From a virus, in the IMG/VR virus record IMGVR_UViG_3300033177_000056: a stretch of 14,462 nucleotides of DNA; one strand, 5' to 3'. The notes below the pieces were generated by a model that searched no databases, was not told where the DNA came from, and saw only the letters and a program-made list of their open reading frames with translations. Made by a program: the position numbers and the translations under genes. Below, piece by piece: positions 1 through 14,462 of this stretch (positions are counted from its first letter, which is position 1; each line of letters begins with the position of its first letter).

Positions 1-127
1 TACACCACCTGGTTGTCCGCCGGGTGTGCCTGATACATCCCATCGTTCAGCAGCTGCAGTATAAAGCTGGCCGCCGACGGATCCACCTCGATCGTCGATG
101 GATAATACCTGACCTCCTCCCCCCCGG
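1..127. repeat. Left copy of the exact 127-nt terminal direct repeat (identical to 14336-14462)
   Basis: Compared by eye: tacaccacctggttgtccgccgggtgtgcctgatacatcc...gacctcctcccccccgg occurs at both window ends. It lies inside the terL coding sequence, so it is an assembly or circular-permutation overlap rather than a non-coding LTR. Confidence 0.95.
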
Positions 128-1139
128 CCGGGGGCTCCGCCCCCGGCCAGGGTGTGCGCATCTCCGCGGGCGGGGTATAGGTATGACTCAGCCACGCCGC
201 CATATCACGTGAGTACTCGACATCAGTCTTCTGCCGCCCGGTAACGCTAGAATCCCAATAGTATTCGCGGGACGCGTACCAAGTCCCGTCCCGGTATCTC
301 TCCATCTGGACAAAGTAGGTAGGGTTCTTAGTACCGTAGTCTACGCCCACCCGGACCTCAACAGGAACAGAACCAACGGGCGGCGAGGATATGTGCTTGT
401 CACGAGCGAAGTTGGAGATGGCTAGACCCGACGCGGATCGCCAGAGACCCATGATGTTACGGTCATAGAACAGGGTGCCGGGAGGGTTCTCTCGAACGAT
501 CGCTTCCTTGTAAGACTGATCAAGATGGGGGTTGTCGGATAACGTGAACCTCCACGCGGCTATGTCGTCGGGTCCCTCGTCTACCCCGGGGAGGAGGGGC
601 GCGCCACACTCGCCGGCGGCTGCGGCCGCCGGCTCGCCGTTGCGGTCGTGTACCTTGCTCACGAATCTACGGTACAGGTAATGACTAGGAGGCCCCGGGT
701 TAAGGGTACCGATGATGGCAGCTCCAGGGTCGGACAGTCTGCTCAGGGCGGTCATGGTGAAGTTCTCGGGTACATGTAACCACTCGTCAACGTATACCCG
801 CCACAATGACTCACCCTCGATGCGCTTGTAGCTGTCAAGCTTGTCAGCTCCCTCGCACCAGATCTCCCTATTAAAGATGGTAAGCACTTTCGCTTGCCTT
901 TTGAAGTTGACGTAATCAGGTAGCAACTTTTTAATCTCACTCACTATGTTTCTCTCGATACTTGAAATGGTATTCCCAACAAGCAGCACATTACCATCAG
1001 GGTGTTCGAGCGTTTCCCATAGCATCTTGAGTACCTGAGCCATGGTCTTGCCACTACGCCAGCTCCCATACAGGATGTTAATCCGTTTCGATGGGGTCAC
1101 TAAATACTGGCCTTGCTTTCCTGTCGGTATCTGTAGCAT
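1..1139 (-). CDS. terL: Terminase large subunit, N-terminal and central part (continues across the circular junction into 14152-14335)
   Basis: The minus-strand frame is open from ATG 1139-1137 to base 1; I scanned every in-frame triplet and found no stop. It is absent from the ORF track only because it has no stop inside the window. Translation starts MLQIPTGKQGQYLVTPSKRINILYGSWRSGKT (Walker A GSWRSGKT). Later motifs are LWRVYVDEW (Walker B-like) and VGVDYG (nuclease Asp). Joined to the C-part it is 1323 nt, i.e. 440 aa plus stop. Confidence 0.9.
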   Translation of the reverse strand, partial: MLQIPTGKQGQYLVTPSKRINILYGSWRSGKTMAQVLKMLWETLEHPDGNVLLVGNTISSIERNIVSEIKKLLPDYVNFKRQAKVLTIFNREIWCEGADKLDSYKRIEGESLWRVYVDEWLHVPENFTMTALSRLSDPGAAIIGTLNPGPPSHYLYRRFVSKVHDRNGEPAAAAAGECGAPLLPGVDEGPDDIAAWRFTLSDNPHLDQSYKEAIVRENPPGTLFYDRNIMGLWRSASGLAISNFARDKHISSPPVGSVPVEVRVGVDYGTKNPTYFVQMERYRDGTWYASREYYWDSSVTGRQKTDVEYSRDMAAWLSHTYTPPAEMRTPWPGAEPPAGGEEVRYYPSTIEVDPSAASFILQLLNDGMYQAHPADNQVV

Positions 1140-1605
1140 TGTCCACCTGCACCTGCTGGAATATCTGCACGAGTCGATTCATAGCATGATCCTGATCATC
1201 ACCGGATTCGACTGCATACTTGTCCACGATAATCCCCATACAGATACACAGATCCTTGATATCCCGTGGACACAACTCCGGTCGAAGCAGCATCGCCTGG
1301 ACGCGATCCATCGCAAAACTCAGTGCTTCTTGCCGCTTCTCCGTCTTGATATATCTCGTATACGAATTCAGCCCATCCTCTAGCTCCGACTTCTTGGCCA
1401 GCAGCTTCTCTTGCATGGTCTTAGTCAGCATACCCTTGTGTTTCTCAGCCGCACGGATCACGAACCCGCGATCTCTTCCCAGCATCCGACCGATCTTGTT
1501 CGGGTTGATCCCCTGCACCAGATACTCCACGCACTTCAACTCCTCCTCCGGAGTGCTGGCCCTTCGCCGCCTAACGTTTTTCAGTTCTCTTTCTGGCTCT
1601 GTCAT
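1078..1605 (-). CDS. terS: Putative terminase small subunit / HTH DNA-binding protein (175 aa)
   Basis: It sits immediately upstream of terL and overlaps it by 62 nt. It has a basic N-terminus (RRRRAS), an HTH-like segment INPNKIGRMLGRDRGFVIRAAEKH, then a predicted helical region. SD GGAGGT lies 4 nt before the ATG. Confidence 0.55.
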   Translation of the reverse strand: MTEPERELKNVRRRRASTPEEELKCVEYLVQGINPNKIGRMLGRDRGFVIRAAEKHKGMLTKTMQEKLLAKKSELEDGLNSYTRYIKTEKRQEALSFAMDRVQAMLLRPELCPRDIKDLCICMGIIVDKYAVESGDDQDHAMNRLVQIFQQVQVDNATDTDRKARPVFSDPIETD

Positions 1606-1617
1606 CGTAGACCTCCG

Positions 1618-1630
1618 TTTCCACTGGAAC
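1618..1630. promoter_or_regulatory. Palindromic box TTTCCACTGGAAC (core TTCCA-N-TGGAA) in the terS 5' leader
   Basis: An exact 13-nt copy recurs at 1961-1973 and an inverted or variant copy at 1988-1998. This copy lies 13 nt upstream of the terS ATG, next to the SD. Confidence 0.5.
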
Positions 1631-1671
1631 TTTTGTCACCCCGCCCAGTTCTCCAGGCAGTGCCGAGATTT

Positions 1672-1947
1672 ATGGTAGAACCATGGTAGAACTGAACTCC
1701 CTATGGTAACTCCACAGAGGCGCTGCATAGCGTTATGGTACAAATGGTAGAAATGTGCGATGCTTAGTTTCCATACAGATTCATTGTACATATCTGTACA
1801 ACAGCTGCTGTACATAATTGTACAATGCCCTATACGAATTATTTCGCCATTATTTCTACCATTTGTACCATAACATACCATAAGGAATCTACTGATATCG
1901 ATTTCATCTATGGTAGAACTGAGAAAATCTATGGTAGAATGGTAGAA
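1672..1947. repeat. Iteron array: 9-mer ATGGTAGAA (often ATGGTAGAACT); putative replication origin
   Basis: Perfect direct copies at 1672, 1683, 1744, 1910, 1931 and 1939. One perfect inverted copy at 1854-1862. Degenerate copies at 1703 (atggtaac), 1735 (atggtac), 1865 (gtaccat) and 1875 (ataccat). Spacings of 11, 20-21 and 32 nt are close to helical multiples. The region is visibly more AT-rich than the rest of the genome. Confidence 0.65.
1782..1827. repeat. 46-nt quasi-palindrome with four TGTACA boxes symmetric about CAGCTG
   Basis: cattgtacatatctgtacaacag|ctgctgtacataattgtacaatg, with 19 of 23 arm positions complementary. TGTACA boxes at 1785, 1795, 1809 and 1819 are mirror-symmetric about 1804/1805. 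It sits between the direct and inverted iteron clusters. Confidence 0.7.
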
Positions 1948-1960
1948 CTTGAAAGGTCGA

Positions 1961-1998
1961 TTTCCACTGGAACTAGCCTCGAAATTCTCCAGTGGAAA
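1961..1998. promoter_or_regulatory. Second and third TTCCA-N-TGGAA boxes at the far edge of the origin-like region
   Basis: tttccactggaac at 1961-1973 is identical to 1618-1630. ccagtggaaa at 1989-1998 is its reverse complement. Confidence 0.5.
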
Positions 1999-2013
1999 TG
2001 GACCTTTGAAACC

Positions 2014-2027
2014 AAGTGCTAGCACTT
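2014..2027. terminator. Perfect 14-nt palindrome AAGTGCTAGCACTT just downstream of the primase-helicase stop
   Basis: The reverse complement of aagtgct is agcactt. It lies 25 nt 3' of the stop at 2052. It could be a hairpin or a protein-binding site; no clear T-run follows it. Confidence 0.25.
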
Positions 2028-2051
2028 CATTGGATAGATTCATAGGCAGTA

Positions 2052-4316
2052 TCAACTTCCACACCAGCTCGCCTTGGCTTTAATGTAACCCGGAGTTTCC
2101 TTCAAAGCGAGCTCTAGCTCTTCACTGGACGAGTTCGAAGCCAGCTTGATCCCATCGTAGTACTCGGCTGTCATGTCACGGGTCACCGCGATACCATGGG
2201 CACTCAACAGGTAGCGCCCGACCTTCCTCGGAGATAGCGCAAAGTAGCCGTACTCGGCACAGTATTCCTTGTACTCCTTGTGTAATTCGGCTCTCCGGAC
2301 CTTATATCGTTCACCCTTTATAACCCTGTAATCAACACTAATAAAAGTTTCCAGGCTATTACACGACAGCCTGTACTCCCTGTGCGTCACATCCGCACCG
2401 ACAGGCGGAGTTAGGCCGTGTTTGAGATACTCAGTGTAGCCTTGGATGCACCAGCGCAGGACAGCGCTAAGCTCGTTGTCTAGCTTGTTTCTAAGCATCC
2501 TGTCTATTCGCCCCTTGAAGCTGACGTGGAATGGAATGACCTTGATCCTATCCCAGGCGGCTGCCGTCGTTTCAGTGATCAGTGGCCTGGTGTTACCCGC
2601 GAGCCAGATCGTGGCCTGGGGGTTGAACTGGATCTCCTTCTGGTACAGGGACCTGGCCCTGATAGGGTCGCCGCCTGTCCACGGTTTCAGTACTTCCATA
2701 TTTAAAACAGCGTCATCTCCCGGCTCACCAGCGGAGATGAATCGCTTACCACGGAGGCTAACCAAATCATCGCGTATATCTCTGGAATTCTTCTTCCGAA
2801 GGAATGTGTCCATGTTAGCGTGGATGCCATACTCTCCGCACACACGACGGATGGTCGTCTGGAAGACGGATTTCCCGTTGTCTCCATCACCGGTCGCATC
2901 GTCACAGTAGAAGAAACATTTCTGGGACATGTCCCCTGAGATCCCGTAGCCCACGCATCTCTGGACCCAGTTCCTGATCTCCTCGTCGGGCCAGACCTCC
3001 GTGACGAACTTGTCCCACCGGGCGCCAGTTGCGTCGGGGTCCAGCTTACATCCTCCGATCAAGGTGATGTAGTCCTCGCGCTTAGGAGGATAGCTGGTTG
3101 CGTTTCTGAAGTCGACCGTCCCACCTTCGAATGTCATCTTCATAGGATCGGAGTCAAGCTCCGCGATGCTGATGGCGATGTCAGGATCCCGGGACGCGAG
3201 CGTGAGCATAGCGTTGCGGCCATGCAATGTGTCCGACGATTTGGCCCAGCACGGACCCTTCTCTTCACCGGAGTCTGGCATCAATGAGTATAGGTAGTCA
3301 ATCACCTCGTTTGCCATCGCGTGAATGGTGCTAGCAGCGTCCTCAGCCCATCTGTTGCCATCCCAGATGTACCAGGTCTTCGTCTGGCTGCAGTAGCGGA
3401 CATTCTCTCCGTGCAGCTTCTTGAACCGCAGTGCATTACCACCTTCGGTATTTTCGAAGTTGTCGCCCTTCGGTTGGATGTCTTGTATCATACCGACATC
3501 GATCATTGTCTGGCGGAGCTTAGACTTGTGATCGCGATAGATGTCAGCACACGCTATAACACCAGCGAGTAGGAGGATCAACGATTCCTTACCACCACCT
3601 CGCTGGCACGCATGGCAGAACCATACCTCGTCTTCGACGTTGATAGATAGGCACGTGCCGCTGACCGATCCATGACATGGGACCACTCCCTTCCATTCGT
3701 TGCCACCGCCTACGGTTGGTTCCCACTTGAAGTGCTCGAGGATCTCTGTTATGCTGAACTGGACTTTCCGCTTCATCATGTTCTCTATGGCTGTCTTCAA
3801 AGATACGTGCTTCTTCGCGTTGGTTGAGTAGCCTGAGAAGATGTCCACTAGCTCTGACACCGATAGCACGCGAACCGGCGCAGGATTGACGATTTCCCGT
3901 TTCCCCCCGCGCCAATTGGGGGAGTTGGGAGCTACCGCATTCGCACCGTTGGACTTGATCTCCGCGATCTTGATACCATCTTCGTTGAAGATATTGAACG
4001 GCCCCACGTGTAGCTCGGGGCACTTGTAGTAATAGTGCCTGCTAACATCACCGATGCCATCGGTCAGTGTCTCTGGCATCTTGGTATCGAATGCTGCTCG
4101 CCCATCGATGTTGTCGATGTCAATGACACAAGCTCCTCCGAACCCAGTGCAGATCCCATACGAGATGCCATCAGGAATCTCCGTCTCAGTGAACGAGTTG
4201 TTGATCGTGTTCCACTCCGCGCCGACAGGATTCTTCCCACTGTTCTTGTCACCGAGGACGACAGGCTTGAGCTTGGTGAACCTGAACCGCTGGCCTTTCA
4301 ACTGATCCGGGATCAT
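2052..4316 (-). CDS. Fused primase-polymerase (PrimPol) / CHC2-like zinc finger / D5-P4-type SF3 helicase (754 aa)
   Basis: N-terminal PrimPol motifs: GGACVIDIDNID (DxD), SRHYYYK, AEIKSNGANAVAPNS. Zinc finger: CHGSVSGTCLSINVEDEVWFCHAC. D5_N-like segment: GGNALRFKKLHGENVRYCSQTKTWYIWDGNRW. Walker A: GDGDNGKS. Walker B region: GKRFISAGEPGDD. Confidence 0.9.
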   Translation of the reverse strand: MIPDQLKGQRFRFTKLKPVVLGDKNSGKNPVGAEWNTINNSFTETEIPDGISYGICTGFGGACVIDIDNIDGRAAFDTKMPETLTDGIGDVSRHYYYKCPELHVGPFNIFNEDGIKIAEIKSNGANAVAPNSPNWRGGKREIVNPAPVRVLSVSELVDIFSGYSTNAKKHVSLKTAIENMMKRKVQFSITEILEHFKWEPTVGGGNEWKGVVPCHGSVSGTCLSINVEDEVWFCHACQRGGGKESLILLLAGVIACADIYRDHKSKLRQTMIDVGMIQDIQPKGDNFENTEGGNALRFKKLHGENVRYCSQTKTWYIWDGNRWAEDAASTIHAMANEVIDYLYSLMPDSGEEKGPCWAKSSDTLHGRNAMLTLASRDPDIAISIAELDSDPMKMTFEGGTVDFRNATSYPPKREDYITLIGGCKLDPDATGARWDKFVTEVWPDEEIRNWVQRCVGYGISGDMSQKCFFYCDDATGDGDNGKSVFQTTIRRVCGEYGIHANMDTFLRKKNSRDIRDDLVSLRGKRFISAGEPGDDAVLNMEVLKPWTGGDPIRARSLYQKEIQFNPQATIWLAGNTRPLITETTAAAWDRIKVIPFHVSFKGRIDRMLRNKLDNELSAVLRWCIQGYTEYLKHGLTPPVGADVTHREYRLSCNSLETFISVDYRVIKGERYKVRRAELHKEYKEYCAEYGYFALSPRKVGRYLLSAHGIAVTRDMTAEYYDGIKLASNSSSEELELALKETPGYIKAKASWCGS

Positions 4317-4807
4317 TCGCTACCACCAACGTAAAGCGCAACCGCGAGCGCAGCATCTATGACCCGCGGTATGTCGAGGAAGACATTATTCTTGCACAGC
4401 AAGTAGTTGTCAACCACAATTTCGGAAAGGACCTTCACGTTAGTGACAAGCTCCAGAGGAGGGATCGCATCAATAGCCCAGCCACATCGCCTGAGATTAT
4501 CCATCTGCAGCTTGCGTCTGACTGCCATCAGCTCTGCCCTGATGGCATCGGTCGTAGGAGAATATTCAGGTGCGTTCAGTACGACGTGCTGGAAGTGCAT
4601 CGATCGGATGGCAATATCTATCATCGCACTCTCATCGAAACAGAACTTGTGGGAGAGCTCTCTGAGCATCTCTTTCTCAGAGACCTCGTGCGATATTCTA
4701 TCACGCACGAGATCGCTGACGGTCCTACCGGACTCGGCAGCATCTCTCTTCAGCACTCGCATGTCGTCTTCGTCAACTCGTATGGTCAACCACTTCGATC
4801 TCGCCAT
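4313..4807 (-). CDS. Ribbon-helix-helix (CopG/Arc/MetJ-like) DNA-binding protein with an uncharacterised C-terminal domain (164 aa)
   Basis: The N-terminus KWLTIRVDEDDMRVLKRDAAESGRTVSDLVRDRI fits the RHH beta-alpha-alpha pattern. Its stop overlaps the primase-helicase start as ATGA (4316-4313). There is no SD; a TATA element is centred 27 nt upstream of the ATG. Confidence 0.7.
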   Translation of the reverse strand: MARSKWLTIRVDEDDMRVLKRDAAESGRTVSDLVRDRISHEVSEKEMLRELSHKFCFDESAMIDIAIRSMHFQHVVLNAPEYSPTTDAIRAELMAVRRKLQMDNLRRCGWAIDAIPPLELVTNVKVLSEIVVDNYLLCKNNVFLDIPRVIDAALAVALYVGGSE

Positions 4808-4824
4808 ACACTATGATGTGTGGC

Positions 4825-4843
4825 ACACCCTATATAAGGGTGT
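4825..4843 (-). promoter_or_regulatory. TATA-like box (minus strand TTATATA, 4837-4831) embedded in the palindrome ACACCCT-ATATA-AGGGTGT; putative promoter/operator of the RHH-primase operon
   Basis: Perfect 7-nt inverted arms at 4825-4831 and 4837-4843 with a 5-nt spacer. The TATA centre at 4834 is 27 nt from the A of the ATG at 4807. Confidence 0.5.
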
Positions 4844-4849
4844 TGCACC

Positions 4850-4920
4850 AGCGACTGGAAGAAGGCAGCGGCCCTTCGGGCTTCCCGCGCTGCGGCGCGG
4901 CGCTGCCATCTTCCGTCGCT
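4850..4920. other. 71-nt GC-rich Y-shaped (three-way junction) structure; candidate operon terminator, pac-type site or structured RNA
   Basis: The outer stem is 19 bp: 4850-4855/4915-4920, 4857-4862/4909-4914 and 4864-4870/4901-4907, with one bulge and one mismatch. It encloses hairpin gccc-ttc-gggc (4871-4881) and hairpin ccgcgc-tgcg-gcgcgg (4885-4900). Confidence 0.45.
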
Positions 4921-4988
4921 TCTCCAACCTTATTGATGAGCTGCGCTCCGGGGGTGCGTGGGGGGAAATATGTTGCTGATTGTGTCGG

Positions 4989-5237
4989 TCATAGAACAGC
5001 CATTCCTACCCCGATGGTCGCGGCAATCGCTATCACGCCACCCGCTGCGTATATGATGATGGTATGTCGCCAGACAGTTCCGTGAAGGTTGGACACCTCA
5101 CCGCGCATGGCAGCGAGGTTGGCGTCTTGCGCAGAGAACGAGTCATGCATGTCTGACCGGAGTCGAGATACTTCTGCTCGAATACTATCCATACTACCCT
5201 GGATGGCATTTAGTGTATTAAGTATCTGGTCGTTCAC
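4989..5237 (-). CDS. Small coiled-coil protein with a C-terminal transmembrane anchor (82 aa); function unknown, possibly holin-like or egress-related
   Basis: The C-terminus HTIIIYAAGGVIAIAATIGVGMAVL is hydrophobic. The N-terminal 55 aa look helical or coiled. The GTG start overlaps the upstream stop as GTGA (5237-5234), with GGTGGTGG upstream. Confidence 0.55.
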   Translation of the reverse strand: MNDQILNTLNAIQGSMDSIRAEVSRLRSDMHDSFSAQDANLAAMRGEVSNLHGTVWRHTIIIYAAGGVIAIAATIGVGMAVL

Positions 5238-5578
5238 TCGTCCACCACCGGAGCTAGGAACAGTGTCCTCATCGGGAGTTCCCCGTCGACGAGTGGCTCT
5301 GTTGTGAAGTTTAGTACCATGTAAGTAACGCCATCGAGCTTAAACGTATACAGTGGTCCGCCGGTGTGTGTGCGCGACGAGTCTATTTCTTCGTCAGTAA
5401 TGACCTCGACAGTCGACACGGTGAGCCTGCCGGCGTAGCTCATGACCTGCTGGTTCTTCCTGGTCCACCGAACCCAGATGATCTTCTGCCATCCAGGGAT
5501 AACCTCCACATACCCGCCAGCTCCCCGATGGGTAGCCTCCTTGATAGAGACTACCTGTTGGGTAAGATACTCATTCAT
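5234..5578 (-). CDS. Putative head-closure / head-tail joining protein (114 aa from ATG 5578)
   Basis: ATG 5578-5576 overlaps the upstream stop as ATGA and is preceded by GGTGAT. Its small beta-rich sequence (VVSIKEATHRGAGGYVEVIPGWQKIIWVRW..) and its position after the adaptor resemble SPP1 gp16 / HK97 gp9-class proteins. The ORF-track start at 5638 lies inside the upstream gene. Confidence 0.4.
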   Translation of the reverse strand: MNEYLTQQVVSIKEATHRGAGGYVEVIPGWQKIIWVRWTRKNQQVMSYAGRLTVSTVEVITDEEIDSSRTHTGGPLYTFKLDGVTYMVLNFTTEPLVDGELPMRTLFLAPVVDE

Positions 5579-6375
5579 ATGATCACCGCGTGGTCCAGGA
5601 AGTATCCTCGAAGCAACGTGACCGCAATGCTGGACCACATGGAATCGGGATCCTTGCCGACGAGCTCCTCGTGTAGACCGTCTTTGCCCATGGAGAAACT
5701 CCTAACTCCGTCTTGTCGCAGCCGGGCTCGGCGGGTGTCACCATACTTTAACATGACAAGAGCTTCCTCGCAACACGCCATCTTGACTACCAGTGGGACC
5801 TCGCCATCTCCCTCCCACTTCTCTGTCACGGGGTTGTAGAACTCCCGGGGGAACGCGTTGGTCTGTTCGCTGTCTACTTTCCGGCCACCGAACGGGAGCA
5901 TGTTGATCTTCCTGGTGGCCTCGCGCAGCAGGGGGAGACGCAGCCCAAGCCTGCTAGGAACGGGGTCAACTCCACCGTACAGATACGTCTTAGGAGTTTG
6001 GGCGATAAGCTCCGTGCCGTCGCCGGCGGACTCTGCTACAACGAGGGCAGCAGCATTTGCGTTTGCAGCTATCTGTGCGATCACGTCATCGTGGTCGGCG
6101 TCTTCACCATATTCGACTATGATACTTCGCCCGATGACGGATACCATCTCACCGAACTCCGCTGGTTCGAGCCTGACGTTGATCAGGTTGCCTTCAGCAC
6201 CTTCGGTGACCGCCGTGATAATCAGTGGCATGTCGGTCGATTCGACGGTGTTGCAATACATGTACGCAGCAGAGCCTTCCTCACCGGCGGAGAACCAGTC
6301 TAGTGCATACGGTTTGTTCTCAGGATCGAAGTACTCGTTCGCTTCGCTGAGCGTAGCATATTCTTCTGTAATCAT
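5575..6375 (-). CDS. Putative head-tail adaptor (gp6 / DnaT_2-like) with an inserted ~100-aa domain (266 aa from ATG 6375)
   Basis: The N-terminus [16 protein letters not shown] and the C-terminal [36 protein letters not shown] match the '..FPR....vP..v..A..e.A' pattern of head-tail connector/adaptor families. There is an ATGA overlap at 6375-6372. Confidence 0.5.
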
Positions 6376-7952
6376 GTTACCCATCCTACTAGATTGATAA
6401 TGGAGGACCCGTTGCCACCACGACTAAACGAAAACCGTTGTGATGCATTGGCTATAATGTACTGTTGATCGTTCGCGATCTGGGTTCCCCCGCGGTTGAT
6501 GTCGTGTGATGAACTCCCACCGTACTTACGGAGCCGCGTGGTGCCAGTCGATATGGTGAGCTTGTGAACTAAGATGATGGCAACAGCGCCTGCTGGGACG
6601 TTATTTGACACATCGACATCAACGAACGTGTTGCCAGCTCCGGACTGGGATCGGAACGTCACTGTGTCTCCGTTAGCCCAATTGTCTGCACTCGACACTG
6701 TAGTAACTGTATATGGCCCGGTCGCGACGTTTGTAGCAATGCGGAATGAATCCCGGGTGGAGTTGTAAACGAGAACCCTGCATGTGCCCTCGGGCATAAC
6801 TCCGGCTCCAGCCAACACGAAGCTCGTAGAGGTAGGATTACCGCTGATCGTAGTAGACAACACGTCGCTCGACGATCCAGCGATATACAGCACCTGAACT
6901 GGAGTTGCCAGGAGCTCCATGCCTCCACTGCCGGACGGTATATCACTGATCCGCATCCTGTAGTAGTCGCCGTCCCTGGCTACAAGAATGTAATCTCCGT
7001 CGTCGTAACCAGTGGTCCCAAGCCACCACATGTCATCGTCGTCTGCAGAACCAGTGGGTCCGGTGGGGCCGCTAGGCCCGGTCGGCCCGGGAACCGTGGA
7101 CGCGGCACCAGTCGGTCCTGTCGGTCCTGTCGGACCCGGTACGGTGGACCCAGCTCCGGTTGGCCCGGTGGGGCCAGACGGTCCAGTTGGTCCCTGACCG
7201 CCGATCGACGACATGAGTTGCCACCATTCGGCATCAGGCGGTTCCTTGTTTAGACAGTTGTCTTTGATACAAACGTAACTTGAACCACCACGGTTGACAG
7301 AGTCCTTCTTGTTATAGGTGGTACCACTGTCCCATGCGCCTAGGAACTCCAGGGCCCCTGCTTCGCCCTGAGCTCCGGTGGGGCCGGTCTTGCCGGTAGG
7401 CCCAGTTGGGCCAGTCACGGTAGAGTCAGCTCCAGTGGGTCCTGTTGCTCCTGCAGCGCCTGCAGCTCCGGTTGGGCCAGCGGGACCCGCCACGAGAGGA
7501 AGCTGACTAACCTGTGCCCTGAAGTAATCCCCGCCCCCATACCCGTGGATCCAGTCGTCAACAGATATGTCGCCGATCAGAACGTCTGCATCCATGAACG
7601 CCCCGCCACCGCCCCCTCCGGCAGGACCGGTAGCACCGGCTGGGCCGGTAGCACCTGTGGGACCTGTAGGGCCACCACCAAGTAGAGACGCTACTTGTGA
7701 CAAAGTGGCGGATCCGTAATACTTGGTCGAACCAATGTAGAATCCAACAAGAATCTTGTCGGTGGAATCAAGGGGCGCCACTGGGTCCAGGGTGAGGAAG
7801 TCGTCGTCGGGAGCACCACCCCCCCCAGCACCAGCTGGCCCGGTGGGTCCGGTCGATCCTGTCGGTCCCGATGGTCCGGTAGGTCCGGTGCGACCCCACG
7901 AGTCGTCGGTATGCCACTCGTTGCCATGTTGCCCGGGAAGGTCAGTCATCAT
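6372..7952 (-). CDS. Multi-domain collagen-like fibre protein (526 aa from ATG 7952): four G-X-Y segments, a CBM5/12-like module and a C-terminal beta-rich domain
   Basis: GPTGPxG runs lie at nt 7815-7892, 7602-7676, 7356-7490 and 7050-7202. The segment [38 protein letters not shown] (about 7212-7343) resembles a CBM5/12 chitin/carbohydrate-binding motif. There is an ATGA overlap at 7952-7949. Confidence 0.8.
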
Positions 7953-8974
7953 CCACCCCATATACCGCCCCAGCTACTGGCGGCTCCGATTTCCTCTTCT
8001 GACCCGAACGTACCCCATGCAGGTTCGTCTGCTATATATTTACGAGCGATGACCCAGAACACGTCTTCGGTGAACTGGGGGTAAGAACCGTACTTGGAGA
8101 ACTGGAACCCGAGCTTGTCGGCTCCTGACGCAGTGACGCCATTTATGGGTTTGAAACTCTCTGATACAAGTTCGATAGTGTAGTCGTTGCCGACCTTGGT
8201 TATACGATAGATGCCGGGGTACCAGGCGGCACTCTTGGATGTCGTGTACGCGAAGAATTCGTGTCCTGTATCGGACTTGGTAGACCCGGCCCATACGTAT
8301 GAGTAAGGGGAGCCATACGTAAGGTGGCTGGCCGACCCATGACCGTCGTCCGCCATCGATGCTACCAGACACTTCTCATTGCTGTCGTGGATAACCATGC
8401 CGGCGAGGCCCATCCCATGGGAACTTCCCGACCCGCCTGGGTGATATATAGACATGCTGTACTCGATGATTACGTTGGTGGGGATCGTCCATTTAGCAGT
8501 TAGCTGGTATGCGCCTTGGCCGGAGTTGCTGGGCCAATCACCCGGGTGACCAGTAACCCGGAGCTTACCACCACTTACAGACGACGTTAAATTATTGTTC
8601 TCCCACTTGTCTCCATCGAGGCTGGTCCCGGGGAAGTAATCGGCAAACTCGAACGTGTCGTCTGGATCAGACACATCGGTTGCTTCCGCGTCCCCGTAGT
8701 AAATATAATAATCCATCGCAGACGTAGCAACGTCTAGTCTGATCCAGAAACGCTGATATGTTGAATCACCGTATTCGGGGTCGCGTGCAAATGAAAGAGA
8801 GGTGCCAACCGAGTCCTTAAACAAGATGTCGTCTGGGAAACTCTCGCACTTGTCAGCAAGATGGACTTTTGTAGCAGTGTCGGTGCCGGTGCCTTTGTAG
8901 ACGTCGATCCACTTCTGGTACCCAGCTTGAGCAGCGTCTGCAGCTCCCAGCGGAAGTTTACGACGGTACTTCAT
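7949..8974 (-). CDS. DUF2341-like plus concanavalin-A/LamG-like domain protein (341 aa from ATG 8974); probable receptor-binding or virion-surface protein
   Basis: [20 protein letters not shown] resembles the DUF2341 signature (..YYGN..). It is followed by [16 protein letters not shown]....GGKLRV, typical of LamG/ConA-like jelly-rolls. There is an ATGA overlap at 8974-8971. It sits between the two fibre genes. Confidence 0.55.
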
Positions 8975-9717
8975 AGGAACGCCTTCCACTTATAGGGGTA
9001 ATCATCCGATGCCTTGATGTATACATTGGTAGCATCAGCACGAACCGTCACTGTACAATCATCGTCCTCGTCATCTCCGAGGGGGATGACTGCGACAAAC
9101 GGGGTGCCATTGAGCCCGTGAGCGATGGTCTGGAGGCTACCGGTGCCTTCAGACGTTCCGCCGGTAGCAGCAGAAAAGATCTCTGCTCCAGTCGGTCCTC
9201 GATCTCCAGTTGGTCCAGTTGGTCCAGTCGGTCCAGCCACGGTTGAATCGGCGCCAGTTGGTCCTCGATCTCCAGTTGGTCCTGTCATACCAGCTGGTCC
9301 GGTCGGTCCGGTCGGCCCCGTAGCCCCTCCCCCGCCAGCTCCGCCTGCCTGCATGACGAACTTGGTTCCGTCGTACACAAGGGCATCACCGACCTCCGGA
9401 GATGCAGTGGATACGGGGATCCCGGCGATCGACCGAACTCCATAGGGTTCATCGAGGGGGACGAGCGTATGCCACTCGTCACCCTCATACCAGTAGATCT
9501 CCCTGGCTTCCTTGTCGATCACTATGTTACCGGGTACCGGGTCTGCCGGCTTAGCTCCAACGATCGGGCGAAGAGGAGAGTCCGGGTCAAAGAATCCAGC
9601 TTGACGAACGCGCTCGACCGCCTCGTCGAAAGTTGGGGAAACCCGCCCGTGGAGCTCCGCGTAAGTGAGCGGCCTCTGAATCAAATTACGAAGGAGAATA
9701 TCTTCTGTAGTTACCAT
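8971..9717 (-). CDS. Collagen-like fibre protein (248 aa)
   Basis: [54 protein letters not shown] (nt 9187-9345) is flanked by globular N- and C-terminal domains. GGAGG lies 7 nt upstream of the ATG. Confidence 0.8.
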
Positions 9718-10738
9718 CCAATGCCTCCATCAATCTCTCCAGCATATTGGCACAACTATACCTGGATGCGTTTATAGACCCCTTTTCGACTATATCAGGG
9801 GGGGTTTCCAGGGCTAAAAGTACCTTATCGTGAATCTGCTTGTGGTCGAACGGATTGACCGTTAGCTCAGGGTAGCAGACACGGGCGGCCTCACAAGTAA
9901 CCGATGCGACCGTCGGGACGCCAAGCGCCGCAGCATCAACGACGCCTCGGCCGTAAGTGTAGTCTGGAGTTAGATCGAGGTTGATGGTAGCGCGAGACAA
10001 CAACGTTTCAATATACTGTTGATAATCGTGAGTAGGTACCACCCGATCAAACAGGGTCTCAAGATCTATTGTAGGAGGAATCTTGCCCGATACTCCGACG
10101 AGGAACCGCTTTAGTTTGATCGGGTGTAAACTGTAATAATAAGCTGACCACGTTGCGTGGTAGCGATGATACTGACACGTGGCCAGAGGCGGGTCAAACT
10201 TGGTCGCCCGCTTGCGGACAATCTCCAGGGCCTGTGTGTCGACTGGGTGAGGAATATGAAAAACCTTTCGATTGAGGTACCGCTCTAGCATGAAGGCACC
10301 GTACTCTTCGACATGGAATACGAGATCGGCGAGATCTAATTGTCGCTTCATCGTACGGGGTTCGATCGTCTCCCACATGCTGAGTGCATAGTCGATGTTT
10401 GCGATAATCTTGGTATCACTGTTACCGAGCGCCGAGCGAACGGCCTCGATGTAATGGGGATGGCCTGGAGTGTAGTTCACGTGGATGATGTCGTACTGCT
10501 CCAGGTAATCCCGTTCCAATGTGCAATACTCTTCTCCGACATGACCTGCTTTCCGGAAAGCGGTGAGCCATGACCTTATCCCAGACTGTATCAGCGGACC
10601 ACGGTAGATGGTGGGAATTGCATGGCAGCATATAGGAAGGGATGAATCGCTGTCCACCGAGATCACTTTTCTGCAGCTGGGACAGTACGCCTCATACTTA
10701 TCCGGAGTAAGGGGGCCGGAGAAGAGTAGATACTTCAT
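9686..10738 (-). CDS. GT-B fold glycosyltransferase (GT1/GT4-like), 350 aa from ATG 10738, with an N-terminal Cys-rich insert
   Basis: MKYLLFSG (Rossmann start), [35 protein letters not shown] and [30 protein letters not shown] follow the canonical GT4 pattern (..E.fG...lEAma.G.PVvas). The insert is [21 protein letters not shown]. There is an ATGA overlap at 10738-10735; the ORF-track start at 10843 lies inside the upstream gene. Confidence 0.6.
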
Positions 10739-11151
10739 CTGCTCTTGAACCCCATTACGCTTCCAGCGATCAGATAGTTGGACGAGTGCCCATGGGCGAT
10801 ATCCACTTCTATGGTGCCCTTCTTGTCGGCATCCTTCACCCACTTGAACCGCGCAGTCTCGAGCGGACCGAGAACTACTACGGATGCGTAGGTGGACAGG
10901 TCGCCGGTCGGCCGGCGCCAGGTGTAATCTCCAAGTCCAGACCTGGGTCCATCACCCGCTTTGACGGTGATACCATCGCTGGTGGAAGCCCCAGTAAGAT
11001 CGAACCGGAGCCAGAGGGCATCGTCGACATCACCAGACTCGATGACGAGACCGCTGGTGCTGGTGAACGTCTTTGGTGCAGCTATCTCATAGCCCATCTC
11101 GGGATCAGCAGCATACCCAAGATCAACGAAGGGGATCGGTGCTCTTGCCAT
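10735..11151 (-). CDS. Hypothetical beta-rich protein directly after the capsid gene (138 aa); possible capsid decoration or accessory protein
   Basis: The ATG is 1 nt after the MCP stop, with AGGTGA upstream. I recognise no motif; the suggested function rests on position only. Confidence 0.35.
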   Translation of the reverse strand: MARAPIPFVDLGYAADPEMGYEIAAPKTFTSTSGLVIESGDVDDALWLRFDLTGASTSDGITVKAGDGPRSGLGDYTWRRPTGDLSTYASVVVLGPLETARFKWVKDADKKGTIEVDIAHGHSSNYLIAGSVMGFKSR

Positions 11152-11152
11152 T

Positions 11153-12055
11153 TTAACTCACCTTCCTGCAGATCAGCATGGCAAGGGCATCCGGCCTGGC
11201 GACCTTGGCACCATACACATGGAGTCCCTTGACAGCATCTGCAAATCTCTTCTGAGGTCTATATGCCTCAACCTTGTTAACGCTGTCCGCGAAAGTCGTA
11301 GCAATTGGGGTGCCCGCTATTACATACGTCTGGGTCTTGGCCGACTCTCCGCCGGTCCCTGCACCGGTCGGGACGTTGTTACTTTCGAGAATATCGAAGC
11401 CAGCAGCACGCTTAACGAGACCGTTGAGCAGTGCATCCGTAGACGTGCTAGCAGCAGCATCGGAGAACCTCGGGTCACCAGACAGGCGCTCAACGAACCA
11501 GGGAGGTACAATAGCCCACCGACCCTGCTTGGGAACGTTGGCCTCAGACAGAACGGTACCAAGCTCCAGGAGATAATCCCATGCGGTGAGCTTCGTGCCG
11601 GCTTCGTCGGGCCGGAGATCCGGGACCTTAGCCGCGGCGGTCGTTCCGATAACGTTGCCAGCAGGCACGCTCGCCTTCATTATGCCAGCGATGTACTGGT
11701 CAGCAACGTCTGCAAGGTTATACGCGGACTGTTGCATAGCTCCGTTCATTAGGGTCGGTGCAGTCTGTGCCTGGTCGATATCATCGACAGCGAAGTTGAA
11801 GTATTTAGCCTGGGTGATCGAGAGCACACTCTGGGAGTCCTCGAGGGCCTCGGGGTCGGTTATGTCAGCGTCCTTGGTATAGTCACCGATGGTGATATCA
11901 CCGACAGACGTGATCTTAACCGTGCTGCCCTTGCCCTTGATCTCCCCCTCGTAGTCCCGATTGATCACGTTAGGCTGGCCGTACACGAGCGCCTTGTTGA
12001 GATTCTCAAGAAGTCTTGCGCTCCAGATGGTGGGAATGAATCCGTCAACTGCCAT
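11153..12055 (-). CDS. Major capsid protein, HK97 fold (P22-coat / N4-gp56-like family), 300 aa
   Basis: FIPTIWSARLLENLNKALVYGQPNVINRDYEGEIKGKGSTVKI and the C-terminal KGLHVYGAKVARPDALAML are characteristic of this capsid family. It directly follows the scaffold gene (TAA then ATG). Confidence 0.85.
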   Translation of the reverse strand: MAVDGFIPTIWSARLLENLNKALVYGQPNVINRDYEGEIKGKGSTVKITSVGDITIGDYTKDADITDPEALEDSQSVLSITQAKYFNFAVDDIDQAQTAPTLMNGAMQQSAYNLADVADQYIAGIMKASVPAGNVIGTTAAAKVPDLRPDEAGTKLTAWDYLLELGTVLSEANVPKQGRWAIVPPWFVERLSGDPRFSDAAASTSTDALLNGLVKRAAGFDILESNNVPTGAGTGGESAKTQTYVIAGTPIATTFADSVNKVEAYRPQKRFADAVKGLHVYGAKVARPDALAMLICRKVS

Positions 12056-12532
12056 TTATTTCACCGTACCTGCTTTCAACTGTGCAGATATATTTTCCCA
12101 ATCCGCGTTGACCTGTTCGGGTGTCATGGACTTTAGCTCCTGCGCGGTGTAGACGCGGGGCGGTGTGTTGGTAGTCCCTGGATTGGTGACTCCACCTACA
12201 GCGGTTTGCTTGACTCCTAAACTGGCCACCAGCTTGTCGGCACTGGCGGCCATCTCCTCCTTCGTTGATCCAACGACAAACTCGACCAACTCCGTGGGGA
12301 GTCCCTTGGCTGCGGCAATCTCTGCTCGCGTTCGCGTTACGGCAGACTGCGCCAACTCCCCCTCCAGCTTGGCGAGGGCGGCCCGCTCAGAAACAAGTTT
12401 CTCCTCCAGGTTAGTTATCCGCTTAAGAAGATCAGGGTCCATAGCGTTACGCGCTTCTCTGTCGCGAGCTAGACGTTCCTGAACTATGCGGTTAACATCT
12501 TCCTGTGTAAACTTCCTATCGTCTTCTGCCAT
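12056..12532 (-). CDS. Capsid scaffolding protein (DUF4355/GP20-like), 158 aa
   Basis: The FTQEDVNRIVQERLARDRE motif, coiled-coil character, C-terminal MTPEQVNADWENISAQL and its position between portal and MCP. Confidence 0.8.
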   Translation of the reverse strand: MAEDDRKFTQEDVNRIVQERLARDREARNAMDPDLLKRITNLEEKLVSERAALAKLEGELAQSAVTRTRAEIAAAKGLPTELVEFVVGSTKEEMAASADKLVASLGVKQTAVGGVTNPGTTNTPPRVYTAQELKSMTPEQVNADWENISAQLKAGTVK

Positions 12533-12586
12533 AATGCACCAACCTTAACGGCGGTTGTAACCTACACTGTATTATCGGGTTGAACA

Positions 12587-12600
12587 TATTTAAACTTTCG
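12587..12600 (-). promoter_or_regulatory. Archaeal-type BRE/TATA-like element: minus strand CGAAAG-TTTAAATA; putative promoter of the scaffold-capsid-fibre operon
   Basis: The minus strand reads ccGAAAGTTTAAATAtg, and the portal stop TAA lies within it. It is about 58 nt upstream of the scaffold ATG, which predicts a ~30-nt leader carrying GGTtGGTG. Confidence 0.5.
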
Positions 12601-14020
12601 GAACCAGGTCTGCCCTGGCCTGGCCCGCGTACTCAGACTGTTCTCGAGGGGGCTCGCCGATCTCCAGGGCTATGCGGACAAGCTCCGCCCTTGCCTCGGC
12701 CTCGGTGCATTCGTCAAGCCGCCGTATGGCACTCTCCTTGCTGGTCAGCCCGGAGTTCTTCCTGGCCTGTTCTATACGGGCGTCCTCGAGCACGTCGCGG
12801 GGCAAACCGTCGTTGAACTTGATCTTGTCTATCTTAACCTCGATAGCTCCAGGTATCCTACCGATTACATCCAGTTTCGAAGCGGCTTGTAAAGCGCGGC
12901 GGAGTGGAGTCTCAAACGCCAGTCTGATCCGGTTGGTACGACTGATCGTCCTCACCAGCAGCCGGCGCCACGCGGATCCGGTAACCGCCTGACCGGTCGG
13001 GAACCGGCCGAGAGCAGCGGGAGATAAGTCAGTAACATGATACAACATGTCCGTAATAACCTCCATCTCCTTGAAACTCGACGTGAGCTTGCCGTCCCAC
13101 TCGATGTACTGGGGGGGCTGGGCATCTCCACGAAGAGGGATGTAGCGGCCGTGGATCGAAACCTTGCGGGTACCGTCGGTCGGGTTGGTTTCAATCATAC
13201 TGTCTGGACCGGCCATTATGGGGCGGCTATGGATGTCAAGCACGTTCATGATGCGGACCATCCTGGACTCCAACTCCTTGACCAGATTGGCCATCACTTC
13301 GAAATCGGAAGTGCCGTACACATCTCCGCGTCGTCTGGAGTTGATGGCATAAAACACCAACGGATAACCTATGGAGTGGTGCTGGATTGGCTGGACGCCA
13401 ACATACTTCACGCTCATGTCCAGAGGGACCTGGTGATCGATGGTGTTGCCGTTCATCCACCAGAGCTGGTGCTCGACCGAATCGTCCCTGTGGATCTCCA
13501 CCTTGAGCAGCCTCGCGTGAGCTCCGCCTATCTGCTCGGTGAACACCCAGGCCAGAACATGCGCCCTTATATTAGTGACGTCATCGGGATCCACGATAGG
13601 GAACCAGATGCTCGGGTCAACATACCCTATCCGACTACCGCCATTGAACGACACCGAGTAGACACACTCGCCGAACTTGCAGTAATCTCTCGCAAGGTTG
13701 TGAAGCTCCTGGTACAGGTTGCTCCGGTCAACGATAGCTCCAAGCCCGTCCGGGAGGATGGGAGCTTCGCCAAACATGTAGTCAGCATATATGTCCGCCT
13801 CGACATGGAACCAGTTGAAGTCCAGAACCTTCGGGGCGCCGAGGGACTGGAGCATCATGTCAGCACGTTCAAGGTCAGTCATGGACCAGAGCTCCGGCCA
13901 CAACTTCTGGTGATCACCGTCGTACATCATCTGGTATTTCTCGTACCGCCTGAGCCGATCGTTCTCCTCGGGAGGGGGGAACTGCTTGGTCGGGGCTAGC
14001 CAGGACAGATCTGTCAGCAT
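12590..14020 (-). CDS. Portal protein (476 aa)
   Basis: Its size, its position between terL and the scaffold, and the N-terminal PPPEENDRLRRYEKYQMMYDGDH resemble SPP1-gp6-type portals. Confidence 0.8.
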   Translation of the reverse strand: MLTDLSWLAPTKQFPPPEENDRLRRYEKYQMMYDGDHQKLWPELWSMTDLERADMMLQSLGAPKVLDFNWFHVEADIYADYMFGEAPILPDGLGAIVDRSNLYQELHNLARDYCKFGECVYSVSFNGGSRIGYVDPSIWFPIVDPDDVTNIRAHVLAWVFTEQIGGAHARLLKVEIHRDDSVEHQLWWMNGNTIDHQVPLDMSVKYVGVQPIQHHSIGYPLVFYAINSRRRGDVYGTSDFEVMANLVKELESRMVRIMNVLDIHSRPIMAGPDSMIETNPTDGTRKVSIHGRYIPLRGDAQPPQYIEWDGKLTSSFKEMEVITDMLYHVTDLSPAALGRFPTGQAVTGSAWRRLLVRTISRTNRIRLAFETPLRRALQAASKLDVIGRIPGAIEVKIDKIKFNDGLPRDVLEDARIEQARKNSGLTSKESAIRRLDECTEAEARAELVRIALEIGEPPREQSEYAGQARADLVPKV

Positions 14021-14043
14021 ACTGGTTATTATACCTCTGATGG

Positions 14044-14050
14044 TATTTAA
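14044..14050 (-). promoter_or_regulatory. TATA-like box (minus strand TTAAATA) centred 27 nt upstream of the portal ATG
   Basis: The geometry matches the RHH gene: TATA centre at 14047, ATG at 14020, and no correctly spaced SD. A bacterial-looking TATAAT (14033-14028) is also present, so the reading is ambiguous. Confidence 0.4.
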
Positions 14051-14065
14051 GGCCGCTTGGGTCGG

Positions 14066-14072
14066 AAAAAAA
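14066..14072 (-). terminator. T7 run (minus strand) after terL without a preceding hairpin; archaeal-style oligo-T terminator candidate
   Basis: The minus strand reads ccccaaaTTTTTTTccgacc, about 80 nt 3' of the terL stop. I could fold no stem-loop immediately upstream. Confidence 0.4.
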
Positions 14073-14075
14073 TTT

Positions 14076-14151
14076 GGGGTTATGTTGGTGTGTGTGGTGA
14101 TGGTGTGCGTGCTACCTACTTGTTATGCTGTGCCGTGTTGCGGTGTGTGCC
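14076..14151. other. Strand-asymmetric G+T-rich (plus strand) / C+A-rich (transcribed strand) low-complexity tract between terL and portal
   Basis: ggggttatgttggtgtgtgtggtgatggtgtgcgtgctacctacttgttatgctgtgccgtgttgcggtgtgtgc has 60 of 75 bases as G or T by my count. Confidence 0.6.
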
Positions 14152-14462
14152 CTAGACGATGCTGTTAACAACATACCGCAATCCGTCTATAGGGTGGTCA
14201 TCCTCCTTCACCACCTGGTCGTCCGTGCTTGATTCGTCCCACTCGTAGTTCTCGATGCAATGTATCAGCCAAGGTACATTCCAAGTAAGTTTCAGCTTAC
14301 CAGTTTCAAGCATAGATGCAATGTGCCTGATACCATACACCACCTGGTTGTCCGCCGGGTGTGCCTGATACATCCCATCGTTCAGCAGCTGCAGTATAAA
14401 GCTGGCCGCCGACGGATCCACCTCGATCGTCGATGGATAATACCTGACCTCCTCCCCCCCGG
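14152..14462 (-). CDS. terL: Terminase large subunit, C-terminal (nuclease) part; 14336-14462 duplicates bases 1-127
   Basis: ORF-track entry 14152..14421 continues in frame upstream to the window end (..VRYYPSTIEVDPSAASFILQ..). The frame matches the 1-1139 segment after subtracting 14,335. It carries a C-terminal DDHPIDGLRY motif typical of terminase RNaseH-like nucleases. Stop TAG is at 14154-14152. Confidence 0.9.
   Translation of the reverse strand, partial: GGEEVRYYPSTIEVDPSAASFILQLLNDGMYQAHPADNQVVYGIRHIASMLETGKLKLTWNVPWLIHCIENYEWDESSTDDQVVKEDDHPIDGLRYVVNSIV
14336..14462. repeat. Right copy of the exact 127-nt terminal direct repeat (identical to 1-127)
   Basis: Same as the left copy. 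Confidence 0.95.

Follow-up and report, generated by a model that had tools for sequence, protein, structure and literature searches.

Within a 14,462-nt stretch of DNA from a virus (IMG/VR virus record IMGVR_UViG_3300033177_000056; here termed the window), the 446-nt non-coding region at positions 1606-2051 is probably the cognate replication origin of the virus's own self-loading primase-helicase, a reading we reach by comparison with related loci and from the structure of the protein. A repeat array enclosing an AT-rich core, a layout that is conserved among relatives, and a winged helix such as that of the Rep proteins of Staphylococcus aureus pathogenicity islands (SaPIs) together lead to this reading, and such an origin is what one expects adjoining this kind of gene. 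The preliminary description of this DNA had proposed an origin at the same place, and our computational follow-up supports it: the region holds the sole non-coding repeat cluster, is low in GC, keeps its layout across relatives, and follows a gene whose product carries a winged-helix domain. The region likely combines origin and transcription signals, with its promoter-proximal end probably carrying the late promoter.

The array is built from a 9-bp iteron that reads ATGGTAGAA on the plus strand and TTCTACCAT on the minus strand, on which every gene of this genome lies. Seven exact matches to ATGGTAGAA occur in the 14,462-nt window, all of them in 1672-1947, where 0.10 would be expected (70-fold over-representation), and none of 200 shuffles reached that number. 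The preliminary description had counted six perfect direct copies and one inverted copy, and these are indeed what we find on the plus strand (at 1672, 1683, 1744, 1910, 1931 and 1939) and on the minus strand (1854-1862), along with two one-mismatch copies (ATGGTACAA; 1735 on the plus strand, 1863 on the minus strand) and weaker copies with a TATGGTA core (1702, plus; 1876, minus). The total comes to seven perfect, two one-mismatch and two to three degenerate iterons, lying 104-380 nt past the helicase stop codon. The TATGGTA core occurs eight times in the window versus 1.3 expected, and seven of the eight are inside 1606-2051. Spacings within clusters are 8, 9, 11 and 21 nt, such that the earlier word "phased" holds only loosely. 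Elsewhere in the genome we found no non-coding repeat cluster, the remaining repeats being collagen-like coding repeats in the tail-fibre genes.

Numbered onward from the helicase gene, the iterons form four clusters. Cluster 1 (1910-1947, minus strand) consists of three perfect TTCTACCAT copies in minus-strand reading (1910-1918, 1931-1939 and 1939-1947). Cluster 2 (1852-1882, plus strand) has the opposite orientation, with a perfect TTCTACCAT at 1854-1862, the one-mismatch copy TTGTACCAT at 1863-1871 and a degenerate copy at 1874-1882. Cluster 3 (1732-1754, minus strand) reads on the plus strand as ATGGTACAA (1735-1743) followed by ATGGTAGAA (1744-1752), and cluster 4 (1672-1712, minus strand) holds two perfect copies 11 nt apart (1672-1680 and 1683-1691) and the degenerate TATGGTA-core copy at 1702. 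The last copy of cluster 4 abuts a TATA-like CATAAAT, which could be a candidate late promoter.

The inner two clusters supply the two arms of a perfect 23-nt inverted repeat (1852-1874, the inner left arm, in cluster 2; 1732-1754, the inner right arm, being cluster 3), with 97 nt between the arms and two iterons in each. The repeat has the potential to form a 143-nt stem-loop (DNA fold -35.3 kcal/mol, z = -8.4); a hairpin does not need the iteron word to be in tandem inside each arm, and its being so argues for a repeated protein-binding unit. Nearly concentric with this inverted repeat is the 46-nt quasi-palindrome (1782-1827) of the core, the 97 bp at 1755-1851 that we regard as a putative DNA unwinding or cruciform element. 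Its four TGTACA boxes (1785, 1795, 1809 and 1819; one further copy brings the window's total to five) had been described as mirror-symmetric about CAGCTG (1804/1805), and this is borne out, with 19 of 23 positions complementary (83%) between the arms at 1782-1804 and 1805-1827. The lowest-GC 200-nt segment of the genome starts at 1764 and overlaps the core (33.5% GC, in a genome of 54.8% GC), and the array encloses the only stretch of the genome below 42% GC. The 23-nt inverted repeat and this GC minimum, like the post-helicase hairpin, the TTCCA(C/G)TGGAA word and the CGCTATGC 8-mer treated below, are additions to the preliminary description.

Transcription runs from a gene for a ribbon-helix-helix (RHH) protein (4807-4313) through the PrimPol-helicase gene (4316-2052) and the 446-nt gap (2051-1606) to a 175-aa gene, terL (the large-terminase gene), and the portal, scaffold, major capsid and tail-fibre genes. 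The protein encoded immediately before the gap (2052-4316, minus strand; 754 aa) joins a PrimPol of the archaeo-eukaryotic primase (AEP) type, a D5_N domain, a superfamily 3 (SF3) helicase (DUF5906) and a C-terminal winged helix at about residues 665-725. Pfam matches support the first three (D5_N, E 9.5e-23; Prim-Pol, PF09250, E 4.8e-8; DUF5906, 26.5 bits, just below its cut-off), PHROG families match too, and the helicase matches PriRep5 of SaPI5 (7OLA) in phmmer at E 1.8e-6. In an AlphaFold2 model (pLDDT 80), a beta-helix-helix-beta-beta unit follows the helicase core at residues 665-725 (pLDDT 85-96), and Foldseek with the full model returned AsfvPrimPol, poxvirus D5/E5 and PriRep5 (7OLA). 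A profile of this C-terminal domain matches residues 679-765 of 7OLA (E 3.6e-4) and the RFX1 winged helix, while a separate model of the domain aligns with the RFX1 DNA-binding domain (1DP7) at TMt 0.73 and more weakly with the winged helices of Cdt1, Orc1/Cdc6 and ORC. The fold is present in the model, and by likeness to the SaPI proteins the winged helix would be the putative iteron reader.

Helicase relatives are 42-65% identical to the window's protein, and for these we fetched the contigs and compared the sequence after the helicase stop codon. Three closer lineages (L017/L052, L016 and L008/L029) share one plan, in which direct repeats are followed by a 27-47-nt spacer, the same word inverted, a core, and the word in direct orientation again. 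In these lineages and in the window the core measures 96-103 nt and has its own palindrome, and the iteron word differs from one to the next: TTCTACCAT in the window (7 copies vs 0.10 expected), CACTAATATCAC in L017/L052 (helicase 65% identical to the window's; 4 vs 0.04), TTATATCACC in L016 (55%; 5 vs 0.18) and AACATACATAA in L008/L029 (45-48%; 11 vs 1.0, with 7 of the 11 in the array). Two distant lineages at 42% identity (L018 and L036) possess GTGAC-type or TGTGATGTA repeats inverted around an AT-rich centre; the word count in L036 is by itself not significant (3 vs 1.8 expected) and its 41-nt inverted repeat is clear. Conservation of the repeat layout, which the preliminary description had put forward as a check, is thus borne out in three closer lineages, each with its own word, and extends as inverted repeats to two distant ones. 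L034 and L037 have no convincing repeat array, so the layout is not universal among relatives at 40-43% identity. When IMG/VR was scanned with the helicase protein, no relatives came up.

No part of the helicase protein diverges more than the winged helix, and one comparison suggests, no more firmly than that, that it tracks the iteron word. The helicase core of the relative P0004 is 72% identical to that of the window protein vs 66% to that of P0002; its winged helix is 52% identical to that of P0002 vs 44% to that of the window protein, and the arrays of P0002 and P0004 share an iteron word.

A second short element accompanies the iterons. The spacer of the shared plan carries a CGCTATGC-type box (in degenerate form in L016 and in the first spacer of the window), and a second box follows the direct iterons beyond the core in the window, L017 and L008. 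In loci of the L008 type (up to 18.7 kb) and the L017/L052 type, CGCTATGC, in the mini-hairpin context AAtCGCTATGCnnCGCC, occurs exactly twice per locus, both times in the array, with the copies on opposite strands in L008 (12516-12523 and 12686-12693) and on the same strand in L017 (3438-3445 and 3609-3616). The window's array has one exact copy (1725-1732, minus strand, context AACGCTATGCAGCGCC), which is kept in relatives with different iterons, and one degenerate copy, AATCGATATCA of the conserved AATCGCTATGC (1893-1903, minus strand), located between clusters 1 and 2 at the same position as the CGCTATGC box of L017 and L008. That the box is a primase start site is speculative.

Between the helicase gene and the array stands a hairpin (1949-2010, minus strand) just past the helicase stop codon, whose 23-nt arms, 91% complementary, enclose a loop of 16 nt (RNA fold -38 kcal/mol, z = -3.5). 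It probably ends the early transcript, and we consider it a putative early-operon terminator and/or regulator site, by analogy with the terminator hairpin that has the matching position in the Sulfolobus plasmid pRN1. The palindromic word TTCCA(C/G)TGGAA occurs at 1619, 1962 and 1987 (3 copies vs 0.21 expected), with one word in each arm of this hairpin (1962-1972 and 1987-1997) and the third, TTCCACTGGAA at 1619-1629, directly before GGAGGT, the ribosome-binding site of the 175-aa gene. One 14-mer, TTTCCACTGGAGAA, is common to the window copy at 1962 and to L017 (3683-3698), although the iterons of L017 differ. Closer still to the helicase gene, 25 nt past its stop codon, is a perfect 14-nt palindrome, AAGTGCTAGCACTT (2014-2027), which appears as a small hairpin in the RNA fold.

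Several points weigh against an origin at 1606-2051 or against our account of how it is read. Initiation there is a prediction from sequence comparison and protein structure. On the circular sequence, GC skew gives no signal at 1606-2051: the cumulative curve falls near-monotonically, with extremes (about 779 and 5829 detrended, 770 and 13969 raw) that bear no relation to the gap; this shape follows from all genes lying on one strand and makes the analysis uninformative, not negative. The covariation of winged helix and iteron word concerns about five residues of a 62-residue segment and three words, and the iterons could instead be read by the RHH protein or the putative small terminase (terS). 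In the window, 104 nt separate the helicase stop codon from the start of the array, vs 7-20 nt in relatives; those relatives are divergent enough that layouts were compared and not aligned bases; and the gap shows no within-species variation, the 7 loci that stand for 16 contigs being identical. For pRN1, specific binding of ORF904 to the downstream region could not be shown (PMC4234260, PMC3869888).

Against the origin stands first the idea that the region serves transcription control only, in which case the RHH protein or some other regulator would time the early-to-late switch by binding the repeats as operators, and replication would start elsewhere. Some control function is to be expected here, since the genes are co-oriented and the early unit must end, and the late unit start, within the gap; the TTCCA(C/G)TGGAA sites on the hairpin and beside the p175 ribosome-binding site fit such a role (p175 being the product of the 175-aa gene). 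Binding to arrays of short repeats in direct and inverted orientation is known of RHH proteins such as omega. The palindrome upstream of the RHH gene itself (CACCCT..AGGGTG) is, however, unlike both the iteron and TGTACA, in relatives that share the layout the RHH gene upstream is a different one or is not recognisable, and the 14.3-kb genome offers no other origin candidate. Control by these repeats is moreover compatible with an origin rather than exclusive of it, and as the only function of the region we judge it unlikely. Scans for sigma-70 promoters and intrinsic terminators across 1500-2200 found nothing, though the signals searched for are bacterial and the host may be archaeal. In distant small-genome relatives the gap between helicase and p175 genes can shrink to about 110 nt (L018, 11058-11192; L036, 2266-2393), and that of L036 is little beyond an iteron inverted repeat around a TATA-like centre, so small that origin and late promoter must overlap there.

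Alternatively, the repeats could be a packaging site (pac or cosB-like) bound by the small terminase, with the cut in or near the central palindrome. Short-repeat arrays flank the cut site in P1 pac, SPP1 pac and lambda cosB, and the region lies directly upstream of a putative terS-terL pair; the gap is always found between the helicase gene and a p175 homologue in small-genome relatives, and this genome has been assembled from many different start points, as headful packaging would allow. The array follows the helicase gene and not the packaging genes, which argues against pac as its main role. Across the relatives the array is not linked to terS/terL: the same layout, with its own word, stands after the helicase gene with no p175 or terL homologue nearby in L008-L015 (6 kb downstream examined) and in L017/L052 (L052 being a Methanothrix chromosomal copy). 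In addition, the repeat word tracks the helicase winged helix, if weakly, p175 lacks a recognisable terS family match, and the circular assembly does not show packaging ends. We hold packaging as the role of the repeats to be distinctly improbable, though the region may also contain a pac site. Two further kinds of element were considered and rejected: an attachment site (attP), as no integrase is encoded and no tRNA was found, and a partition site, as the genome lacks a ParA-type gene.

Compared with shuffles, the predicted folds are very stable, as would be expected if the region were a structured non-coding RNA whose inverted repeats are stems, but DNA inverted repeats give such stability trivially. 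The stems repeat one short word in tandem, for which an RNA stem would have no need, and searches of the region against Rfam (at the gathering threshold and at E <= 1) and for tRNAs found nothing, such that we think an RNA very improbable.

A 142-codon stop-free frame does run through the gap on the coding strand (2064-1636, minus), and JGI gene calling places a 135-aa product there, which ENA gene calls omit. GC at its three codon positions is flat (0.42/0.41/0.41, where third-position GC is 0.53-0.72 in all 13 real genes), its codon-usage score is negative (positive for every real gene), and different iterons fall in different frames, all three being used (FYH, STI and LPW). A search of 5.8 billion proteins returned only the product itself, tblastn gave no signal in relatives in which the adjoining 175-aa gene is conserved, no ribosome-binding site precedes either start, and no Pfam family matches at E <= 10. 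A stop-free run of this length in such an AT-rich stretch is rare, being reached in 2 of 5000 mononucleotide shuffles, a null that is too strict in that shuffling destroys the repeat structure; the run may be a by-product of repeat words without stops. The preliminary description had held that a conserved coding signal in related genomes, with repeats not conserved at the DNA level, would overturn an origin here; with no homologues, flat GC and a non-coding codon score, the frame looks non-coding, and that it is a real gene with the repeats as a by-product of its coding sequence is a proposal to which we assign next to no weight.

Setting the origin in its genome, a 127-nt terminal overlap in the window indicates a circular assembly of 14,335 bp (unique circle 1-14335), and this is a complete circular genome of tailed-virus type with about 16 genes, with terL wrapping the window ends. 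Several ENA and JGI samples together yielded nearly identical copies in at least 16 contigs with differing start points, and megablast with the whole window as query found no DNA-level match among 50,697 phage records. No tail-tube or tape-measure gene was found in the genome. Upstream of the helicase, the RHH gene (4313-4807, minus strand; 164 aa, CopG/NikA-like; Pfam RHH_1, E 1.2e-5, above the cut-off) overlaps the helicase start with its stop codon (ATGA; a 4-nt gene overlap at 4313-4316). It is preceded by a palindrome, GTGCAACACCCT-TATAT-AGGGTGTGCCAC (4820-4848, minus strand), that includes a TATA-like TTATATA (4831-4837) centred 27 nt before the ATG at 4807; with the orf56/orf904 promoter of pRN1 as the model (PMC4234260), this would be a putative early promoter/operator for the replication operon. 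The palindrome lies in a second non-coding gap (4808-4988), which is GC-rich, has a hairpin with 14-nt arms (4857-4870 / 4901-4914), and is probably where the late operon ends and the early operon begins.

On the other side of the origin, p175 (1078-1605, minus strand) bounds the gap as the first gene of the structural operon. The preliminary description had the origin flanked by the primase-helicase gene and terS; the PrimPol-helicase gene at 4316-2052 and a 175-aa gene are there as stated, whereas the terS label is positional, as p175 has no family match in Pfam (up to E <= 10) or PHROG and is a putative small terminase on the strength of its position, overlapping terL. Small-genome relatives (L018-L023, L030, L032 and L034-L038) have p175 homologues of 37-46% identity downstream of their helicase genes. 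Within the terL coding sequence there is also a GC-rich hairpin with 14-nt arms at 122-152 (CCCCGGCCGGGGGC / GCCCCCGGCCAGGG). The collagen-like Gly-X-Y coding repeats (9-nt period) fall in two tail-fibre genes (7050-7895 and 9182-9327), and gene calls in the fibre region differ in sample L006, which has a 219-aa product after a gap and not the 526-aa product, suggesting that this part varies or was misassembled.

On circumstantial grounds, a methanogenic archaeon, likely Methanothrix, is the probable host. A helicase 65% identical to that of the window, with its own iteron array, is found in a closed Methanothrix chromosome assembled from a metagenome (L052, CP086218.1; 1408-4413, array 4414-4700), and more distant relatives occur in a Methanomicrobiales metagenome-assembled genome and in Methanoculleus viruses. 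Pfam gave nothing for the genes flanking the Methanothrix copy, nor for the small proteins upstream of the relatives' helicase genes. A bioreactor virus assigned to Methanosarcinales (L055, BK063672.1) has a capsid protein 47.5% identical to the window's, and the post-capsid protein (phrog_24894) and portal families match between the two as well. With TTATATA before the ATG and no Shine-Dalgarno sequence, the start of the RHH gene resembles leaderless promoters of archaea. Should the host indeed be a methanogenic archaeon, the virus would be unusually small among archaeal tailed viruses; a search of the available literature for described small Methanothrix viruses found none.

To our knowledge, the replication origins of archaeal viruses are almost all unmapped. 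The present work precisely delimits a candidate origin, and names a candidate initiator domain, in very small tailed viruses that form a family not described before and have relatives in Methanothrix and other methanogen genomes. The compact cassette of RHH gene, PrimPol-helicase gene and origin (about 3.2 kb) could serve as a replicon for methanogen vectors, and the recurrence of one layout with different iteron words provides a natural specificity-swap series for how self-loading SF3 helicases read their origins.

Putting these features together, we propose that a TATA-type promoter at about 4834 would drive an early operon that yields the RHH regulator and the 754-aa PrimPol-SF3-helicase. 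The C-terminal winged helix of the helicase would then bind the 9-bp iterons (TTCTACCAT) in the four clusters. The inner two clusters, a perfect inverted pair, flank the 97-bp AT-rich core, and two hexamers would assemble on either side and melt it, which extrusion of the TGTACA palindrome or of the 143-nt stem-loop under negative supercoiling would help. The PrimPol domain may prime the exposed strands, speculatively at the CGCTATGC boxes, before host polymerases would take over.

A more elaborate form of this origin is conceivable, if improbable, for a 14.3-kb Methanothrix tailed virus: a hybrid in which the tandem iterons double as the arms of two mutually exclusive hairpins of about 100-140 nt, helicase loading flips the region from one state to the other, and the CGCTATGC apex is the PrimPol start site. 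The hairpins would exclude each other because the middle cluster at 1852-1882 pairs with either cluster 1 or cluster 3. The cluster 1/2 fold puts a box-like sequence in its apical part in all four lineages folded, and the cluster 2/3 fold contains the TGTACA core; speculatively, the former would present the lineage-independent CGCTATGC mini-hairpin and the latter would extrude the core. If true, this would be an archaeal viral origin that joins the iteron logic of SaPI and P4 with the stem-loop logic of pRN1, a combination not described before.

The SaPIs are among the known systems closest to the origin as we read it. Their Rep proteins are self-loading SF3 helicases whose C-terminal winged helix binds iterons of 5-6 nt, and their origins consist of six to twelve iterons immediately downstream of rep, with an AT-rich centre that is flanked on each side by at least two of them, the two sides being opposite in orientation (PMC9371898). 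In the window, likewise, a primase is fused to an SF3 helicase and a C-terminal winged-helix fold, with matches to 7OLA by sequence, by C-terminal domain profile and by fold, and iterons downstream of the gene stand on both sides of an AT-rich centre, two per inner arm and opposed. The two differ in that the window's iterons are 9 bp vs 5-6 bp and form four clusters, the outer two being extra, and in the 46-nt TGTACA palindrome of its core. The window further differs in having an RHH gene before the helicase gene, a host that is probably archaeal, and an array that begins 104 nt past the stop codon, behind a hairpin.

The window also shares features with pRN1. The minimal replicon of pRN1, mapped by experiment, comprises the operon of orf56 (an RHH repressor) and orf904 (a PrimPol-SF3 helicase-winged helix protein) plus 166-232 bp downstream, a part that holds a terminator hairpin and a 100-nt stem-loop required for replication, and across the pRN family the sequence of this stem-loop varies while its structure is kept (PMC4234260, PMC3869888). 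The module order is the same in the window, from RHH through PrimPol-SF3 helicase-winged helix to a small hairpin and a large stem-loop (143 nt in the window), with an upstream, overlapping RHH gene (a putative repressor gene), AEP, SF3 and winged-helix domains in one protein, and the hairpin and stem-loop downstream. The pRN pattern of kept structure and varied sequence also parallels the lineage-specific arms of L017, L016, L008, L029, L018 and L036. Unlike the window, in which the arms are tandem iterons, pRN1 is without iterons (PMC4234260), and it is a Sulfolobus plasmid, whereas the window is a tailed-virus genome. The comparison with ORF904 at that level extended to a Pfam scan, in which the pRN1-specific domain pRN1_helical was not seen.

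Phage P4 also needs a second iteron region, crr, several kb from ori, and no such distant region is found here, where all exact copies lie in 1672-1947, the sole non-coding cluster. Its alpha protein resembles the window's in being a multifunctional primase-helicase with a C-terminal winged helix that binds repeated words at the origin (as summarised in PMC4234260), and differs in its primase, which is of the Toprim type (PMC4234260), the window's being an AEP Prim-Pol (PF09250). RSF1010 oriV combines iterons with short hairpin sites at which a dedicated primase starts (PMC4234260), and by that likeness the CGCTATGC mini-hairpin boxes, which are on opposite strands in L008, could speculatively act as ssiA and ssiB do. 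RSF1010, however, uses three separate proteins (RepC, RepA and RepB'). Overall, the element combines features of the SaPIs and of pRN1, and we file it as an origin adjacent to a self-loading SF3 primase-helicase.

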